From contig CAZTJK010000003.1 in the NCBI GenBank assembly GCA_964613715.1, forward strand, positions 7,322-71,321: 64,000 bases of DNA. Direction: 5' to 3'. The notes beneath the pieces were generated by a model. It was not told where the DNA came from. It made no database searches and worked only from the letters and a program-made list of their open reading frames with translations. The translations under genes and the position numbers were made by a program. Source of the DNA: an uncultured Candidatus Saccharibacteria bacterium (GTDB lineage Bacteria; Patescibacteriota; Minisyncoccia; Phycocordibacterales; GWA1-40-21). Shown piece after piece: positions 21,573 to 58,147 of this stretch (positions are counted from its first letter, which is position 1; each line of letters begins with the position of its first letter).

Positions 21573-21610
21573 AAAAAGGCGGGTCGCGCGAAGCGCGACC
21601 CGCCTTTTTG
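21573..21610. terminator. rho-independent terminator
   Basis: aaaaaggcgggtcgcgcgaagcgcgacccgccttttt. Confidence 0.6.
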
Positions 21611-21614
21611 TATG

Positions 21615-21637
21615 TTGTGGAGATGGCGAGAATCGGT
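21615..21637. repeat. partial direct copy of the tmRNA 3' end (acceptor/T-arm)
   Basis: ttgtggagatggcgagaatcgg resembles ttgtggagatgggcggaatcga at 21814-21836. Twelve nt match exactly and about 20 of 23 match overall. The copies are 199 bp apart. Confidence 0.5.
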
Positions 21638-21816
21638 CACGAATAAATTTCCTGACAGAAATTTTTCGCGACCCCGGCTCGCTATTTTTGCCTTTGCTTC
21701 GTAAAACAAAAATAAAGCTGCGCCCGTTCGATTCCGACGCACGCAAAGCAGTTTGCGTGCTCCTGAATCTTACTTATAAAAATAGCCCGACACGAAGTCG
21801 GGCTATTTTTATATTG

Positions 21817-22219
21817 TGGAGATGGGCGGAATCGAACCGCCGTGCAAATGATTGTTACCGATGATTCTACAAAGTCTAGTCGAATTTTTTCGCCGAAGCG
21901 AATTTAAGTGGAAAGGCTATAAGACGACAAAATACCTTCCTGCCGATTCTCTACAGTTCATATCGCGTCGAGAATCCGCGACATATACTCTGAATTATAT
22001 TCCACCCCGGTCCGAGTAATCAGATGTGCTCGGGCGGGACGTCGCTTAGGCTATTGCGTAAGCGAAGGACGCGTTCGAAACTCCGAAATACGGAGAGACG
22101 AGAGACGCGACCTTGCGAGAAATGCTGTTTGCATTTGTCATCCTGACGGTTAAGGAGTGTACAGGGTGCTCCACTTTGCTCATGCGGGAACGGATCAGTT
22201 GTCTAGGCCGATCATCCCC
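21817..22219 (-). ncRNA. ssrA: tmRNA (SsrA)
   Basis: The 5' end GGGGATGATCGGCCTAGAC pairs with the 3' end ...GGTTCGATTCCGCCCATCTCCA (tRNA-like T-arm and acceptor). An internal tag ORF reads ...ANSISRKVASLVSPYFGVSNASFAYAIA* (stop at 22046). smpB sits immediately upstream and a terminator immediately downstream. Confidence 0.85.
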
Positions 22220-29698: not shown

Positions 29699-29736
29699 AA
29701 AAAGCGCCGGCCGCGAAGCGGCCGGCGCTTTTCATT
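29699..29736. terminator. bidirectional terminator
   Basis: aaaagcgccggccgcgaagcggccggcgctttt. Confidence 0.6.
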
Positions 29737-29740
29737 TTCT

Positions 29741-30190
29741 TTACTGCCACGCAGCAAGGATTGCTCCCATCACTGCCACTTCAGTGAGCAAGCTCACGGT
29801 ATCAAAAAGCCAGAGCTTTTTCGATCGGCCCATCCAGATCATTTCTACCGATGACGCCGCTGCGACAAAAAGCCACATCCATGCGCCAAGCACCGCGCCA
29901 CGGTACCAGCTGATCGCGCCCATTAGTGGGGAGGCGAATACGAGCCACATTGCTCCGGAGAGCACGAATGCCAGGACAACATTTGCGACATAGTTTGCAA
30001 ACATCTGCCCTTTCATGCCAGCAAACGTTTCCTTGCCGGTCGGGGTCACGTTTGCAAGCCGCATCCAGATTTTGCCGAAGAGCGGTCCATGAAAGAGAAA
30101 GCCGATGATAAAAGCTGCTGCTGCAGCGACGAGTATTGCGAGAATATTGATCGTGAACATGAGTGAATTATATAATAAGGCTGATAACAC
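29741..30190 (-). CDS. DUF1761-like membrane protein
   Basis: AILVAAAAAFIIGFLFHGPLFGKIWMRLA resembles the DUF1761 N-terminus. 149 aa, 4 TM. Confidence 0.5.
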   Translation of the reverse strand: MLSALLYNSLMFTINILAILVAAAAAFIIGFLFHGPLFGKIWMRLANVTPTGKETFAGMKGQMFANYVANVVLAFVLSGAMWLVFASPLMGAISWYRGAVLGAWMWLFVAAASSVEMIWMGRSKKLWLFDTVSLLTEVAVMGAILAAWQ

Positions 30191-34764: not shown

Positions 34765-34806
34765 CAAAAAGCGGCGCGTGCGAAGCATGCGCCGCTTTTT
34801 GTTTTT
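34765..34806. terminator. bidirectional terminator
   Basis: aaaagcggcgcgtgcgaagcatgcgccgctttttgttttt. Confidence 0.6.
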
Positions 34807-34811
34807 AATTT

Positions 34812-51860: not shown

Positions 51861-51897
51861 CAAAATGCTGCGCGCCCGAAGGGCGCGCAGCATTTTG
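51861..51897. terminator. strong hairpin between two tRNA genes
   Basis: caaaatgctgcgcgcccgaagggcgcgcagcattttg. Confidence 0.5.
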
Positions 51898-51904
51898 ATT
51901 CTTG

Positions 51905-51975
51905 TTGCGGGGACAGGATTTGCACCTATATCTTCAGGTTATGAGCCTGACGAATTACTGTTACTCTACCCCGCT
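51905..51975 (-). tRNA. tRNA with anticodon CAU that has initiator-like features (candidate tRNA-fMet)
   Basis: A1xA72 mismatch at the top of the acceptor stem, A11:U24 in the D-stem, and a perfect anticodon arm tcagg-cTCATAa-cctga. The D-loop lacks GG and the T-loop tgcaaat is atypical. The likely promoter is TTGATT-16-TATACT on the minus strand at 51984-52012. Confidence 0.45.
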
Positions 51976-52470: not shown

Positions 52471-53419
52471 TGATTTTCTCTATCACCTGCCGTATTGCTT
52501 TCGGATCGGAAACGAGTGCGCCTTTGTCGTTTGTGACGGCAAGCGGCGCGAAGATAACGCGTTTGTCGGAGCGCTTCACGAATTTACTGAGCTCGACTTT
52601 GCTTTCGAGAGAATAGTTCAGCAGCACTTTTTTGGCGATCGGCGCATTATTCGAAACGATATGGTCGACTTTCGTGCCGAGGTATTTCTCGATCTCGCGG
52701 ATGAAATCGTCTGCGGTATAGTTGTCCGTTTCGCCGGATTTCGTCATGATATTCAAAAAGAGAATGATGGTCGCACCGCTTTTCTTCACGGCTTCCTTGA
52801 CGCCGGATGGCAAGAGCGTCGGTACGATGCTGGAATACAAATCTCCTGGAGAAATGATGATATAGTCGGCCGTGGTAATTGCTTTTTTCACATCACTCGA
52901 TGCTGAGACACGCGGCGACAGATACACGCTTTTGATGGAATGAACATTCGGATTCCAAAGCGGATTTTGCGCAATCGTATCGATATTCGTCTCGCCAGAA
53001 ATGACGCTGCCCATGGCAAGCTTCGCGCGCAATTCCGTCTTCTGTTCGGTGACCGGCAATACAGTATGGCCGTTGATATCGCAGATATCTGCCATAGTCT
53101 TCATTGCTGAACGGAGATTGCCCGTTTCCTCAAGGGCGAAGAAAAGGAGGTTCTTGATGGAGTGCCCCTCGATCGGCCCTGCGCCATAACGGTAGGAAAG
53201 AGCCTTTGCAAGCGCTGGCTTTCTCGAGAGTGCGACGATGCATTTGGTCAGGTCACCGAGGTAGCCGCTTGCGCCATAGGCGTCAGCGAGGATACCGGTA
53301 GAGCCTCCGGAATCGGTGCTCGGGCAGATCGCGGTAATGGCGATGTCTTTCGTATCCTTGAGTGCCGAGAGCACTTGCGAATGGCCGCTGCCGCCGCCGA
53401 GCGTGACGATATTTTTCAT
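52463..53419 (-). CDS. yvcK: YvcK/CofD-family protein (gluconeogenesis factor / UPF0052)
   Basis: MKNIVTLGGGSGHSQVLSALK matches the N-terminus of the family. 318 aa. Confidence 0.8.
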   Translation of the reverse strand: MKNIVTLGGGSGHSQVLSALKDTKDIAITAICPSTDSGGSTGILADAYGASGYLGDLTKCIVALSRKPALAKALSYRYGAGPIEGHSIKNLLFFALEETGNLRSAMKTMADICDINGHTVLPVTEQKTELRAKLAMGSVISGETNIDTIAQNPLWNPNVHSIKSVYLSPRVSASSDVKKAITTADYIIISPGDLYSSIVPTLLPSGVKEAVKKSGATIILFLNIMTKSGETDNYTADDFIREIEKYLGTKVDHIVSNNAPIAKKVLLNYSLESKVELSKFVKRSDKRVIFAPLAVTNDKGALVSDPKAIRQVIEKIIK

Positions 53420-53437
53420 AGTGGGTATTCTACGCGC

Positions 53438-53974
53438 CTAGGCATTTTTGACAAGCTGCACGGCGCTTTTCTCGAGCAGCGTTTTCTGGAGCTCCCGCGC
53501 GGTACCGATATCGATGATGTCGAGCACCACTTCCGATTCTTCGCCGTGCTTGCCGTCAGTGGTAGCGGCAGTGAGCACGATGATCTTGCCGATGCCGACA
53601 AGCTTGCCGAGAATACTTTCATCGATGTCGACATCCTGGATCTGGCGATAGGGAATGGATATCTCGTCCTTGCTGATAATGCCGCGATTGATCCTGAACG
53701 CGAAGTCATCGAGCATGATATGCGTGCCGAAATAGCGCCAGAGATTGACGAATAAGCCGATCGCGATCGCGGCGATCGCGAAAAGATAAAGTCCTCCGGT
53801 CAGGAAGAGGATAATCTTGTTCACGCCGTCTGCGCTCGTATAGCCGGAATGAAGGAAGAGGCCGATGACGGTATTCTTGAATGAGAGCAACGCAAGCGAA
53901 AGAAACAAAAGTATCACGCCCGGCAACAAGCCCTTGATCACGTAGGCGATAAGCGCGCGGAATCCAAGTGTCAT
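53438..53974 (-). CDS. membrane-anchored bacterial PH-domain protein (YdbS/YdbT-like)
   Basis: Two N-terminal TM helices are followed by a bPH_2-like domain. Confidence 0.6.
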   Translation of the reverse strand: MTLGFRALIAYVIKGLLPGVILLFLSLALLSFKNTVIGLFLHSGYTSADGVNKIILFLTGGLYLFAIAAIAIGLFVNLWRYFGTHIMLDDFAFRINRGIISKDEISIPYRQIQDVDIDESILGKLVGIGKIIVLTAATTDGKHGEESEVVLDIIDIGTARELQKTLLEKSAVQLVKNA

Positions 53975-54067
53975 GCTTCTATGCTAGCATAGAGTCCCTT
54001 CGAGGAGAACCATCTTTTCCTTTTGCAAAAAAGGGAAAAATCGCTTAGTATGCACAGTGCTTGCCGT

Positions 54068-54143
54068 GCCGTTGTAGCTCAGTCGGTAGAGCACGTCATT
54101 GGTAATGACGAGGTCACCAGTTCGATCCTGGTCAACGGCTCCA
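54068..54143 (+). tRNA. tRNA-Thr (anticodon GGU), CCA encoded
   Basis: GCCGTTG-TA-GCTCAGTCGGTAGAGC-cgtca-tTGGTAa-tgacg...GGTTCGATCC...CAACGGCTCCA. Confidence 0.9.
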
Positions 54144-54144
54144 G

Positions 54145-54217
54145 GCCACCTTAGCTCAGTTGGTAGAGCACATCTTTCGTAAAGATGGGGTCCGCGGTTC
54201 GATCCCGCGAGGTGGCT
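54145..54217 (+). tRNA. tRNA-Thr (anticodon CGU)
   Basis: GCCACCT-TA-GCTCAGTTGGTAGAGC-catct-tTCGTAa-agatg...GGTTCGATCCCGCG-AGGTGGC-T. It begins 1 nt after the CCA of the previous tRNA. Confidence 0.9.
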
Positions 54218-54219
54218 CA

Positions 54220-54960
54220 AAAGGACAGTTGCATTTTGTGTGCCGAGTGCTAGCATTTTCATATCCGAAAGAATTTCTGTCTGTAGGCTTTACGGCCATA
54301 GATAGGCGGATTGAGGAGCCTGGATTAGATACCCAGGTTGCGGTTGTGCAAGCGCGGACGTTGTCCGCGAGCATGGAGCCGGTTCTCGGCTATTCTGCAC
54401 AGGTAGGCCTGCGATTGCGATGGGCCACATGCCTTGTCTTGACCTCCGCCTTTGCCTTCTTTCGGATTCGGATGTTGTACCGCCGATTGCATTCGGCGGC
54501 TTAGAATCCTCCGCTTTCCATTGGGTAGCGGGGGATTTTTTATTTTAACTATGTTAGTATTTTATGGTTCAGAAAAGATGAGGTTTGAGAGGGTTCTTCA
54601 CGTCATGCTTGTCGCTTTCTGTTGTGTATGCCAGATTCAAAAACCACAACAGGTATGTTTCAAGTTGACGAACTTGTACACACCGCCTTTCCAATTTTTC
54701 TGGACAATAATAATCCCCGCGGCTTTGTCACGGGGATTTTTTGTGTCATTCTGTGCTTACTTGAGTTCAAAATGAATTGTGCTACTATTTTTGTAGGTTA
54801 GGGGCTCTCTCTCGTGCGCGAGGGAGGTACCACATCCGGATCGGAAAAAAGCTACCGATATAAGGACCGGCTGAAACGAACTTTCCCATAAATTCTGGCG
54901 AGTTCCTGCCTACCTGACCTATTCCCCTGTCTGCAGATGGGGGATTTTTTTATGGCCTTC
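54220..54960 (+). other. 740-bp non-coding region punctuated by three intrinsic terminators (54511-54545, 54713-54743, 54923-54952), candidate small RNA loci
   Basis: No credible ORF is present. The only track ORF reads through a terminator hairpin. Each of the three units of about 200-320 nt ends in a GC hairpin plus a T-run. Confidence 0.35.
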
Positions 54961-54976
54961 TGCTATACTCGACCCC

Positions 54977-55849
54977 ATGAAAGAAGAACTCGAAGCGAAG
55001 CTGAAATCATTGGAAGCCGACGTGCAACGCCCGGATTTCTGGACGGATAAGGCGAAAGCGCAGGCGACGCTCAAGGAAATCAATTTCCTCAAATCTGAAA
55101 TACTCGGCAAGAACAAATACGATGCGGGCCATGCCATCATGACCATCTTTTCCGGGGCGGGGGGCGATGATGCGGAGGATTTTTCCCGGATACTTTTTGA
55201 AATGTATTCGAAATATTGCGCCAAGCAGAACTGGGACTATCGCATCGTGGATGAGACGGAAAACGACCACGGCGGCTATCGCAATATCACGCTCGAGATC
55301 ATCGGGCCGAATGCCTACGGTCTCTTGAAGCATGAGTCTGGCGTGCATCGTCTCGTGCGCCTGTCGCCCTTCAATGCGAAAAGTCTGCGGCAGACTTCCT
55401 TTTCGCTTGTCGAAGTTGTGCCGAAAATTGATAAAGATGGCGAGATACAAGTCCCGGATACTGAGCTCAAGATAGATATCTCGAAAGCAGGCGGTCCCGG
55501 CGGACAGAACGTGAACAAGCGCGAGACGGCGGTGCGCATGGTCCATATTCCGACTGGTATCGCGGTACGCAGCGCTTCCGAGCGTTCGCAGCAGCAGAAT
55601 CGCGAGAAAGCACTCCAAGTATTGAAGGGCAAATTGTATAAGCTGAAAGAAGCGGAGGATAAGGCCAAGCAAAGCGGCATGCATATCTCGAAGACGGTAT
55701 CGATAGACTGGGGGAATCAGATACGCTCGTATGTCTTTCACCCGTATAAGATGATCAAGGATCATCGCACGGATGTGGAAACGGCGAATATCGACAAGGT
55801 ATTGAATGGCGATCTTACTGATTTCATCGACGCGGAGAAGAATCTATAA
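54977..55849 (+). CDS. prfB: peptide chain release factor 2, N-terminally reduced, with no programmed frameshift
   Basis: SPF tripeptide (RLSPFNAK) and GGQ (AGGPGGQNVNK). 290 aa. The extended -10 TGcTATACT lies 7 nt upstream of the ATG. No upstream CTT-TGA shift site is present. Confidence 0.85.
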   Translation: MKEELEAKLKSLEADVQRPDFWTDKAKAQATLKEINFLKSEILGKNKYDAGHAIMTIFSGAGGDDAEDFSRILFEMYSKYCAKQNWDYRIVDETENDHGGYRNITLEIIGPNAYGLLKHESGVHRLVRLSPFNAKSLRQTSFSLVEVVPKIDKDGEIQVPDTELKIDISKAGGPGGQNVNKRETAVRMVHIPTGIAVRSASERSQQQNREKALQVLKGKLYKLKEAEDKAKQSGMHISKTVSIDWGNQIRSYVFHPYKMIKDHRTDVETANIDKVLNGDLTDFIDAEKNL

Positions 55850-55853
55850 GAGA

Positions 55854-55895
55854 AAACTGGGCGGGCCTGCAAAGCAGGCCCGCCCAGTTTTATTT
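55854..55895 (+). terminator. rho-independent terminator
   Basis: aaactgggcgggcctgcaaagcaggcccgcccagttttatttc. Confidence 0.65.
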
Positions 55896-55924
55896 CTCCG
55901 GTAATACTGCTATACTATTCATTC

Positions 55925-56605
55925 ATGATCGTTTTCGAGAAAGTCAGCAAGATATACGCAGATGAGACCGTCGCGCTCGACGAGGTGACCGTCTCCATAG
56001 ATCCGAAAGAATTCGTCTCTATCGTCGGCCACTCCGGCGCGGGCAAGACCACCCTTATCAAGATGCTCCTGGCCGAGGAAAAGCCGACCTCCGGCCGCGT
56101 TTTTTACGAGTCCCTCGATATCCATAAGCTGAAAAAGAACGAGATCCATCATCTCCGCAGGAAGATCGGCACGGTGTTTCAGGATTTTCGCCTCCTGCCC
56201 AACAAGACCGTCTATGAGAACATCGCTTTTGCCATGGAAGTGTCCGGAAAAGGCGATGCGGAAATCCATGCTGATGTGCCGCATGTCTTGGAGCTCGTCA
56301 ATCTTGGCAATAAGGCATTTAATTTCCCGCACGAACTTTCAGGAGGAGAAAAGCAACGCGTCGCCATCGCCCGTGCCATCGTGAACCAGCCGGATATCAT
56401 CATTGCCGACGAGCCAACCGGCAATCTTGACCCGATCAATACCTATGAAGTCGTGCAGATCCTGAAGAAGATCAATGATCTCGGCACGACGGTCATCCTT
56501 ACCACCCACAACAAAGGCGTGATCGACAGCCTCGGCAGGCGTGTGCTCACCATGGAAAACGGCAAGGTGGTCCGCGATGACAAGACAGGTAAGTTTTCAA
56601 TGTAG
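55925..56605 (+). CDS. ftsE: cell-division ABC transporter ATP-binding protein FtsE
   Basis: Walker [11 protein letters not shown] and signature [14 protein letters not shown]. 226 aa. Confidence 0.93.
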
Positions 56606-57631: not shown

Positions 57632-57702
57632 TTGCGGGATCGTCTAATGGTAGGACACGCCCCTCTGGAGGGTGGTATCTTGGTTCGAGTCCAAGTCCCG
57701 CA
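57632..57702 (+). tRNA. tRNA-Gln (anticodon CUG)
   Basis: U1:A72 (tgcggga/tcccgca), D-arm gtc-taatggta-ggac, anticodon arm cgccc-cTCTGGa-gggtg, T-arm cttgg-ttcgagt-ccaag. 71 nt. Confidence 0.75.
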
Positions 57703-57846
57703 GCAAAAAGAACACAGCGATTTTTGCTGCGGGAAGCAAGCGCAGAGCTTGCGTCTTGGACGAGAAGACCTTGAGTATATCGCACGGAGCCTTTGCGAGT
57801 ACGATACGAAAGGTGTACAGTGCCTGTAAGGAACGAGATGCGAAGC

Positions 57847-57862
57847 GGTCCAAGTCCCGCAG
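57847..57862 (+). repeat. exact 16-bp direct copy of the tRNA-Gln 3' end (gtccaagtcccgcagc)
   Basis: It is identical to 57688-57703 and sits 159 bp downstream, immediately before the AT-rich island. Confidence 0.6.
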
Positions 57863-57874
57863 CTAGCAAATCTC

Positions 57875-57889: not shown

Positions 57890-58147
57890 ATGCTTGTTGT
57901 ATCGAAAAAAATTTCATTGCTTCTTCTCGGCATTACGGCTATCACCTGCTCCAGGATCTTGTTTCTTTGTATTAACGATCCTGAAGGCCCAAATCTGCTC
58001 GTCGTTCTAGGTATGGCAGCGATTCTCTACTTTTTGTCTTTGGCAGTATATGTATTCCTTCCCGCAACCGTCAGTCTCAAGAAGCTCCCATTGGCTATTT
58101 TGACACAGCTGCTCATAGCCGCCGGATTATATTTTTGTTTGCGCTGA
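57890..58147 (+). CDS. hypothetical small membrane protein
   Basis: 85 aa, 3 TM. AT-rich. Confidence 0.35.
   Translation: MLVVSKKISLLLLGITAITCSRILFLCINDPEGPNLLVVLGMAAILYFLSLAVYVFLPATVSLKKLPLAILTQLLIAAGLYFCLR

Follow-up and report, generated by a model that had tools for sequence, protein, structure and literature searches.

The ar14 or cuckoo small RNAs (sRNAs) contain two or more hairpins with CCUCCUCCC loops, 6S RNA binds the RNA polymerase holoenzyme and templates product RNAs (pRNAs), and the RNase P RNA gene is essential and, thus, expected in close relatives. More broadly, a housekeeping RNA is expected to be conserved in position or sequence. The Patescibacteria (Candidate Phyla Radiation, CPR) have tiny genomes and remain for the most part uncultured, and almost nothing is known of their regulatory RNAs. 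Here we consider a 64,000-nt stretch of DNA from an uncultured Candidatus Saccharibacteria bacterium (contig CAZTJK010000003.1; hereafter, the window) and, within it, the 758-nt spacer (54219-54976) that separates a tRNA-Thr(CGU) gene from prfB, the gene for release factor 2 (RF2). This spacer may represent three orphan sRNA-type transcription units, designated U1, U2 and U3, inserted at a variable junction and followed by a leaderless prfB with a promoter of its own, an interpretation to which we assign roughly an even chance of being correct.

The main argument for three autonomous units and a leaderless prfB is the regular placement of promoter-like boxes, terminators and closing helices along the + strand, from which we also infer the start sites. 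Counted on its + strand, the window has 37 matches to an extended -10 box motif (TGNTANN[AC]T; 0.58 per kb), exactly four of them in the spacer, whose - strand has none. The putative U1 promoter (TGCTAGCAT, 54248-54256, + strand) lies 29 nt past the tRNA and 7 nt before the U1 closing helix. The putative U2 promoter (TGTTAGTAT, 54552-54560, + strand) begins 10 nt past the first terminator, T1, with the closing stem of U2 downstream; at this promoter the 13-mer ACTATGTTAGTAT is identical to one in the spacer of a related locus (L030). The putative U3 promoter (TGCTACTAT, 54780-54788, + strand) is found 37 nt past the second terminator, T2, with a possible -35 element (TTGAGT) upstream and the U3 closing helix downstream, and the putative prfB promoter (TGCTATACT, 54961-54969, + strand) is found 9 nt past the third terminator, T3, and 7 nt before the ATG. 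For all four boxes, the closing helix or, in the last case, the prfB ATG follows at 7-8 nt.

Each unit would end in a terminator of the Rho-independent type, taken here as a G+C-rich stem-loop directly before at least five U residues. T1 (UCCUCCGCUUUCC-AUU-GGGUAGCGGGGGA followed by U6; 54507-54541; -19.9 kcal/mol), T2 (UCCCCGCGGC-UUU-GUCACGGGGA followed by U6; 54714-54742; -15.7 kcal/mol) and T3 (UCCCCUGUC-UGCA-GAUGGGGGA followed by U7; 54923-54951; -13.6 kcal/mol) all have this form on the + strand, with stems of 9-13 bp. They share a 3' arm, GGGG(G)AUUUUUU, and the only three copies of the exact 11-mer GGGGATTTTTT in the window lie inside the spacer. The style was not seen elsewhere in the 64 kb and differs from that of the many other terminators of the window, whose G+C-rich hairpins are long, fully paired and topped by GAA/TTC triloops, with flanking A- and T-tracts, and are often bidirectional (e.g., 2805-2845, 21575-21615, 29700-29742, 34765-34809, 51861-51906 and 55854-55898). 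Only two terminators of the T1-T3 style were seen in 607 kb of related loci, and a paired-terminator pattern built on GGGGATTTTTT gave 12 matches in viral contigs, all of them unrelated.

The predicted RNAs fold well between these boundaries. U1 (54263-54542, + strand), of ~280 nt, has a minimum free energy (MFE) of -122.8 kcal/mol (z -4.94; 0 of 200 shuffles as good) and consists of an 11-bp closing helix (54263-54273 with 54457-54467; an inverted repeat, I6, with 11/11 matches) around a multi-branch domain, followed by a hairpin (54480-54499) and T1. U2 (54567-54743, + strand) is a predicted rod-like RNA of ~177 nt (MFE -55.0 kcal/mol, z -3.49, 1 of 200 shuffles), in which an 11-bp closing stem (54567-54577 with 54695-54705; inverted repeat I4) and an apical 9-bp stem with an 18-nt loop precede T2. 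U3 (54795-54951, + strand), of ~157 nt (MFE -58.3 kcal/mol, z -2.77, 1 of 200 shuffles), would fold into a closing helix (AGGUUAGGGGC with GCC..CCUACCU) around a three-hairpin junction, followed by the tail GACCUAUU and T3. For the spacer as a whole the fold z-score is -6.8 on the + strand and -7.2 on the - strand, while two coding controls gave +0.30 (55200-55479) and +0.99 (56000-56176). Because of the U-tracts and the promoter boxes, the units are assigned to the + strand.

One further feature links two of the units. A 29-nt segment of U1 (54456-54484, + strand) is complementary to a segment of U3 (54823-54851, + strand), these being the arms of inverted repeat I1, with 24 of 29 positions in Watson-Crick pairs, 25 when a G-U pair is counted, and a duplex energy of -33.6 kcal/mol. 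In 100 shuffles the best 29-nt inverted repeat reached at most 23 matches, compared with 24 in the spacer. This complementarity could reflect RNA-RNA pairing, an inverted partial duplication or the long-range structure of a single transcript. A miniature inverted-repeat transposable element was rejected as its source, there being no target-site duplication, and a comparison of U1, U2 and U3 with one another found nothing in common beyond the terminator arm.

The spacer is bordered on the left by tRNA-Thr(CGU) (54145-54218, + strand; identified by ARAGORN and the Rfam tRNA model), which follows tRNA-Thr(GGU) (54068-54143; ARAGORN), and on the right by prfB (54977-55849, + strand), a single open reading frame (ORF) that encodes a 290-aa RF2 with Pfam PCRF and RF-1 matches. 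The first-pass annotation had described a gene-free stretch between the tRNA-Thr pair and prfB, and the 758 nt indeed appears non-coding: one ORF (54160-54504) begins within the tRNA, another (54452-54775, 107 aa) crosses two terminators where the annotation had noted read-through of one, and neither has a Pfam match. The three hairpins with T-runs that it listed are T1-T3, and the three internal hairpins that it named were all found in the spacer. Its view that the spacer is exceptionally long was borne out as well, since on a crude ORF/RNA map of the window this is the widest of 85 gaps (median 41 nt), although its range of 5-150 bp for all other spacers was slightly too narrow, nine gaps exceeding 200 nt. 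G+C content is uneven, at ~0.58 in U1 and ~0.40 in U2, and tandem repeats were not found within the spacer. A contig from a separate assembly (L001, from Logan) contains the identical 758 nt but was probably built from the same reads.

Comparison with relatives indicates that the tRNA-Thr(CGU)/prfB junction is a variable insertion hot spot, as different lineages hold unrelated RNAs or genes there. The loci compared (numbered with an L prefix) comprised 80 from GTDB species genomes, 80 from metagenomes and 6 obtained by exact-protein look-up, and the flanks were searched over +/-2.5-4 kb in ~165 loci. The window is from a Patescibacteria genome of the Paceibacteria/Parcubacteria type. Its best RF2 matches come from metagenome-assembled genomes labeled Patescibacteria, Paceibacterota or Saccharibacteria, and because the closest RF2 among 5.8 billion proteins is only 81% identical, the data include no close relatives. 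The gene order tRNA-Thr(GGU), tRNA-Thr(CGU), prfB is widely conserved, and where a locus includes both tRNA-Thr(CGU) and prfB, the spacer is 0-10 nt in about half of the cases. Among the nine nearest (RF2 at least 77% and up to 81% identical), four have a spacer of 0-7 nt (L002, L004, L205 and L199), one has a 124-nt palindromic insert (L003), one is rearranged (L204), one has a different unit of ~150 nt (L206) and two, L200 and L201, have a non-coding RNA of ~300 nt, termed X. Small promoter/terminator units also occupy the junction in L016/L227, L217, L024 and L226. In L252 (1997-2488), with an RF2 61% identical, three successive promoter/terminator units are present, unrelated in sequence to U1-U3. 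L246 (2349-2454) has an ar14/cuckoo-like RNA with two CCUCCUCCC-type loops, in a host far outside the Alphaproteobacteria (47.4 bits, E 8.5e-6, below the gathering score of 58.8). Protein genes at the same position encode a copper nitrite reductase (NirK)-like protein, a NUDIX protein, a RAYT/IS200-like transposase, a GT2 glycosyltransferase, RlmH and an aminotransferase (accessory-gene loci L007/L008/L209, L011/L015, L049/L064, L071, L052 and L038). Judged from this comparison of sequences, the 758 nt is one lineage-specific occupant of the hot spot.

The best characterized of the other occupants is X (L200, 143-479; L201, 1573-1866, identical in L202 and L203). A promoter and a terminator of its own delimit it. 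Its two versions align with a score of 65, where the null is 15.5 +/- 2.6, several compensatory changes fall in the 12-bp helix that closes the RNA end to end, and 9 of 41 predicted pairs in the core have changed on both sides; on these alignments X is clearly a real RNA, and it matches no Rfam family. X also contains a covarying direct repeat, two copies of CAGCUUUU with AAGCUG in L200 and two copies of CGACUUUU with AAGUCG in L201, which hints at alternative pairings. A covariance model of the X core (R1; 179 positions, 41 pairs) recovered only L200 and L201 from 666 kb of related loci. With filters off, its best score in positions 53000-56000 of the window was 5.4 bits, on the wrong strand. 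Homology of the spacer to X was rejected on this R1 result (<6 bits) and on Smith-Waterman and nhmmer comparisons, both at null level.

The origin of the insert was approached through the traces that integration at a tRNA gene can leave. A duplicated tRNA 3' segment (attL/attR) was not found, both tRNAs aligning with the spacer at null level, and a pseudogene test with the junction ORFs of relatives gave no tblastn match to the spacer (E at least 0.02). Such traces do occur elsewhere. At 57690-57865 of the window, the last 15 nt of tRNA-Gln (TCCAAGTCCCGCAGC) are repeated at 57851-57865 and enclose a 146-nt insert, the pattern that a very small element leaves when it integrates at the 3' end of a tRNA gene, and an 85-codon membrane-like ORF follows (57891-58147). 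In relatives, mini-insertions of ~90-190 nt lie in or after tRNA-Thr genes and end in a duplicated 3' segment of the tRNA T-arm/acceptor (L003, 3602-3751; L199, 165-319; L208, 845-1010; L233, 981-1400, in two tandem copies; and L239, L015, L020, L022, L016 and L060/L271). Several have a common core, GAGCCAAC..CTGCTTGG..GATCGAAAG, and the group may be a Paceibacteria family of miniature elements that target tRNA genes.

The junction also bears on how prfB is expressed. In about half of the relatives its ATG touches or overlaps the 3' end of tRNA-Thr(CGU) (GGTGGCTCATG; e.g., L002, 3990-4010; L004, 3993-4010; L080, L003, L205 and L244), which suggests a leaderless mRNA freed by tRNA 3' processing. 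In every relative with a spacer, TGnTA(T/C)ACT is found 6-9 nt ahead of the prfB ATG. In the window, T3 together with the fourth box 7 nt before the ATG argues that prfB would be a separately transcribed leaderless mRNA. Most bacteria autoregulate prfB through a programmed +1 frameshift site. The RF2 of the window, like that of all the relatives, is only ~290 aa and is encoded by a single ORF without such a site.

Searches for known RNA families gave a largely negative picture. At the gathering score, Rfam 15 found only tRNAs and one tmRNA (21814-22219) in the whole window, in agreement with the earlier statement that RNase P, signal recognition particle (SRP) and 6S RNAs are not evident elsewhere in it. 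On 54150-55050, a search with lax filters at E<=10 returned weak, terminator-driven noise (NsiR1, mmgR, anti-hemB and similar), with RF00010, RF00011, RF00013, RF00169, RF01854, ROOL (RF03087) and GOLLD (RF01998) unmatched. ar14/cuckoo (RF02344) had no match there either, and CCUCCUCCC loops were not found in the spacer. By inspection, the P4/CR-I (GGAAAGUCC) and CR-V (ACAGAA..GGCUUA) nucleotides of RNase P RNA are not in U1, where GAGGAGCCUGG forms the 5' arm of a local hairpin and not a long-range P4. The GNRA tetraloop and symmetric-loop AGCA of SRP helix 8 were not seen, the U3 hairpin loop being AAAAAAGCUA, and the MFE fold of U2 has only small internal loops and not the large central bubble of 6S RNA. 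Searching the literature for RNase P, 6S or ncRNA in the CPR turned up nothing relevant. The first-pass annotation had proposed structured RNA units, a view upheld by the anatomy, the three terminators and the fold z-scores; its suggestion of RNase P, SRP or 6S RNA gained nothing from Rfam or the relatives, as the covariance-model check that it recommended was negative at both thresholds and the recommended BLASTN check found no islands of similarity to U1-U3 in related loci.

Two segments of the spacer resemble 16S rRNA. A hairpin of U1 (AGCCUGG-AUUAGAUAC-CCAGGUU; 54317-54339, + strand) looks like 16S helix 24 with its 790 loop, and its 13-mer GGATTAGATACCC equals E. coli 16S 785-797. A segment of U2 (54654-54687, + strand) resembles 16S 1375-1403 weakly above chance: the 15-mer CTTGTACACACCGCC is identical to E. 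coli 16S 1389-1403, the adjoining TATGTTTCAAGT resembles Paceibacteria 16S, and the 7-nt insert that interrupts the segment forms a hairpin. The helix-24 790 loop and the 1390-1403 strand are P-site/platform elements, universally conserved in 16S rRNA. The spacer is not a 16S pseudogene, because word matches of this kind also arise in shuffles (5.6 rRNA matches of at least 13 nt and 0.15 of at least 15 nt per window), the best local alignment to Paceibacteria 16S is close to null (15.5, compared with 15.0 for unrelated tiles of the window), and nhmmer with Paceibacteria 16S left the spacer unmatched, as did small-subunit models at E<=10. A 16S pseudogene or rRNA mosaic was, thus, rejected, the 13-mers being at chance level and the 15-mer mildly unusual. 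A split match, GGATGTTG...GGCTTAGAA (23S ~1055-1070), was demoted as a mosaic part after window-wide controls.

The alternative that U1 (790 loop) and U2 (1390-1403 strand) are rRNA mimics, titrating or recruiting a 30S-platform factor such as IF3 or KsgA, is improbable in our estimation but has some curious observations behind it. The loop A[U/G]UAGAUAC, closed by at least 4 bp of stem, occurs in seven hairpins in 1.05 Mb of Paceibacteria loci, as opposed to 0.53 in shuffles. Of the seven, that of L013 belongs to true 16S and those of L018 and L070 to coding DNA. The other four are non-coding, and every one of them is next to tRNA-Thr(CGU), with stems that differ (the window; L030, 2256-2274; L226, 2246-2266; L269, 2349-2365). 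A junction RNA in L024 (3857-3871) contains TTGCACACACACCGC, similar to the 16S-like 15-mer of U2, which itself stands beside the Paceibacteria-like sequence. Set against this are the chance expectations, the near-null local alignment and the negative nhmmer search given above. Moreover, the L269 hairpin may be merely a -10 box, and the flanks of the three good loop hairpins align at only z ~2. In viral contigs the helix-24 pattern gave 104 matches, all in coding-gene families and at chance level, and 0 matches when anchored to a tRNA. It is a slightly longer shot that U1, and perhaps U2, belongs to an undescribed class of Paceibacteria RNAs beside tRNA-Thr(CGU) that mimics the 790 loop of helix 24 and the 1390-1403 decoding-site strand. 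If it does, such mimics just upstream of prfB could act as an rRNA decoy in organisms with reduced ribosomes, either sequestering a factor that binds the 30S platform or the P site or delivering it.

Several observations weigh against the interpretation of U1-U3 as sRNA-type units. Homologues were not found by blastn, Smith-Waterman or nhmmer in ~1 Mb of related loci, nor by distant blastn among phages and plasmids, so the units offer neither covariation nor conservation. Since both strands of the spacer fold well (- strand z -7.2), the z-scores reflect an excess of inverted repeats and not one particular RNA or strand. The promoter calls depend on a 5-base degenerate motif, and the -35 elements are weak. 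An automated terminator scan found three sites, compared with 1.5 +/- 1.4 in shuffles, and of these only T3 corresponds to one of the + strand terminators described above, T2 being scored on the - strand and T1 missed; by itself, the scan is therefore not significant. Finally, a recent insertion may simply not yet have been purged. The main rival is that the spacer is inert inserted DNA, a foreign or mobile remnant in a hot spot that does nothing beyond terminating transcription of the tRNA operon, with prfB having gained or brought a promoter. We consider this unlikely yet a serious contender, given that the insert is missing from all relatives, that four of the nine closest have almost no spacer, that unrelated genes (NirK-like, NUDIX, RAYT-like, GT2 and RlmH) occupy the junction elsewhere, that the G+C content is heterogeneous, that terminators of this style are otherwise foreign to the window and that U1-U3 lack homologues in related loci, phages and plasmids. 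It accounts poorly for the strong folding of U1-U3 and for four -10 boxes that share a strand and all stand at the right distance from the closing helix assigned to them, while decayed ORFs and att-type tRNA repeats were not found, and a streamlined genome would be expected to lose 758 useless bases. Inert DNA of this length would be unusual where spacers have a median of 41 nt, and sRNA-like units at the same junction in relatives set a precedent (X in L200/L201, the ar14-like RNA in L246, three units in L252 and one each in L206, L217, L016 and L226). The earlier rule was that a negative covariance-model search together with a region variable among relatives would indicate junk or decayed DNA. 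Both were observed, but the verdict of junk is not adopted here: the ordered promoters and terminators, together with the fold statistics, speak for transcription units that are live.

The remaining alternatives fare less well. A single structured RNA of ~700 nt beside tRNA genes, of the ROOL/GOLLD kind and with the terminators as internal hairpins, would suit the whole-region fold (z -6.8), the long-range 29-nt complementarity (54456-54484 with 54823-54851) and the adjoining tRNA genes, but is very improbable when ROOL and GOLLD are unmatched at E<=10, every hairpin is followed by U6-U7 and then a -10 box, the whole-region MFE structure leaves U3 as a separate domain, and homologues were not found. 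Small-protein or type I toxin-antitoxin genes within the units are, if anything, a shade more improbable: there are ORFs of 66 codons (hydrophobic; ATG at 54578), 43 codons (54373) and 25 codons (54814), but they lack a Shine-Dalgarno sequence, a Pfam match and conservation, and the longest crosses T2 into the U3 promoter. That the units are divergent housekeeping RNAs, with RNase P RNA in U1, 6S RNA in U2 and SRP RNA in U3, is extremely improbable. The sizes of 280 and 177 nt fit roughly, U2 is a rod with paired ends, and these RNAs are not seen elsewhere in the window, but the five corresponding models are unmatched at E<=10 with lax filters, the hallmark motifs were not found by inspection, and the locus is empty in close relatives. 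The best reading of U1-U3 is as orphan sRNA-type genes rather than housekeeping RNAs.

Taken as sRNA-type genes, the three units suggest the following model. A lineage-specific insertion between tRNA-Thr(CGU) and prfB would have brought three autonomous + strand units, each with an extended -10 promoter, an RNA 5' end paired to a segment just before the terminator, and a U-tract, yielding U1, U2 and U3 RNAs of ~280, ~177 and ~157 nt. T3 and the fourth -10 box would make prfB a separate leaderless mRNA, as opposed to the tRNA-fused prfB of about half of the relatives. The mechanism that we favor is base-pairing in trans, possibly through C/U-rich single-stranded stretches or through the pairing of U1 with U3 over 29 nt. 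We infer transcription of the units, their start positions and action in trans from these arrangements. If U1-U3 are expressed, they would be three new orphan sRNAs in a Patescibacteria genome; if the units are silent, the finding becomes an ordinary lineage-specific insertion. More broadly, lineages appear to use the tRNA-Thr(CGU)/prfB junction as a landing pad for small RNA genes that differ from one to the next, and prfB appears to have a leaderless mRNA, either released by cleavage of a tRNA precursor or driven by a -10 box that precedes its ATG by 7 nt. The junction could serve for a systematic harvest of CPR sRNA candidates.

How the locus compares with described systems can be stated for each of its parts. 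U1 recalls RNase P RNA (RF00010/RF00011) in being multi-branched, of ~280 nt and closed by a helix, but lacks the P4, CR-I and CR-V nucleotides and an Rfam match, and a U1 homologue, as would be expected of an RNase P-type RNA, was not found at the syntenic site or within the searched flanks of the ~165 loci. U2 is like 6S RNA (RF00013) in its ~177-nt rod with paired 5' and 3' ends, and differs in having no large central bubble, Rfam match or conservation in relatives. As a whole, the spacer shares with ROOL and GOLLD a highly structured non-coding stretch of ~0.7 kb beside tRNA genes, but without a model match, and its internal U-tract terminators and promoters would divide it into three units. 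Like the remnants of tRNA-targeted integrative elements, it immediately follows the 3' end of a tRNA, a position that holds diverse inserts in relatives, whereas a duplicated tRNA 3' segment, an integrase and phage or plasmid similarity are lacking. The ar14/cuckoo CcsR arrays of Alphaproteobacteria, which consist of trans-acting sRNA genes, resemble U1-U3 in design, being head-to-tail series of short units with a promoter, stem-loops, C/U-rich stretches and a Rho-independent terminator; U1-U3, in contrast, are 2-3 times longer, are not mutual paralogues and do not have CCUCCUCCC loops. X is a counterpart in position: although U3 is 157 nt to the ~300 nt of X and matches it in neither sequence nor structure, both occupy the slot between tRNA-Thr(CGU) and prfB with the same outline of a promoter, a closing helix, a tail of the GACC(A/U)AU type and a terminator, followed by the -10 box of prfB.

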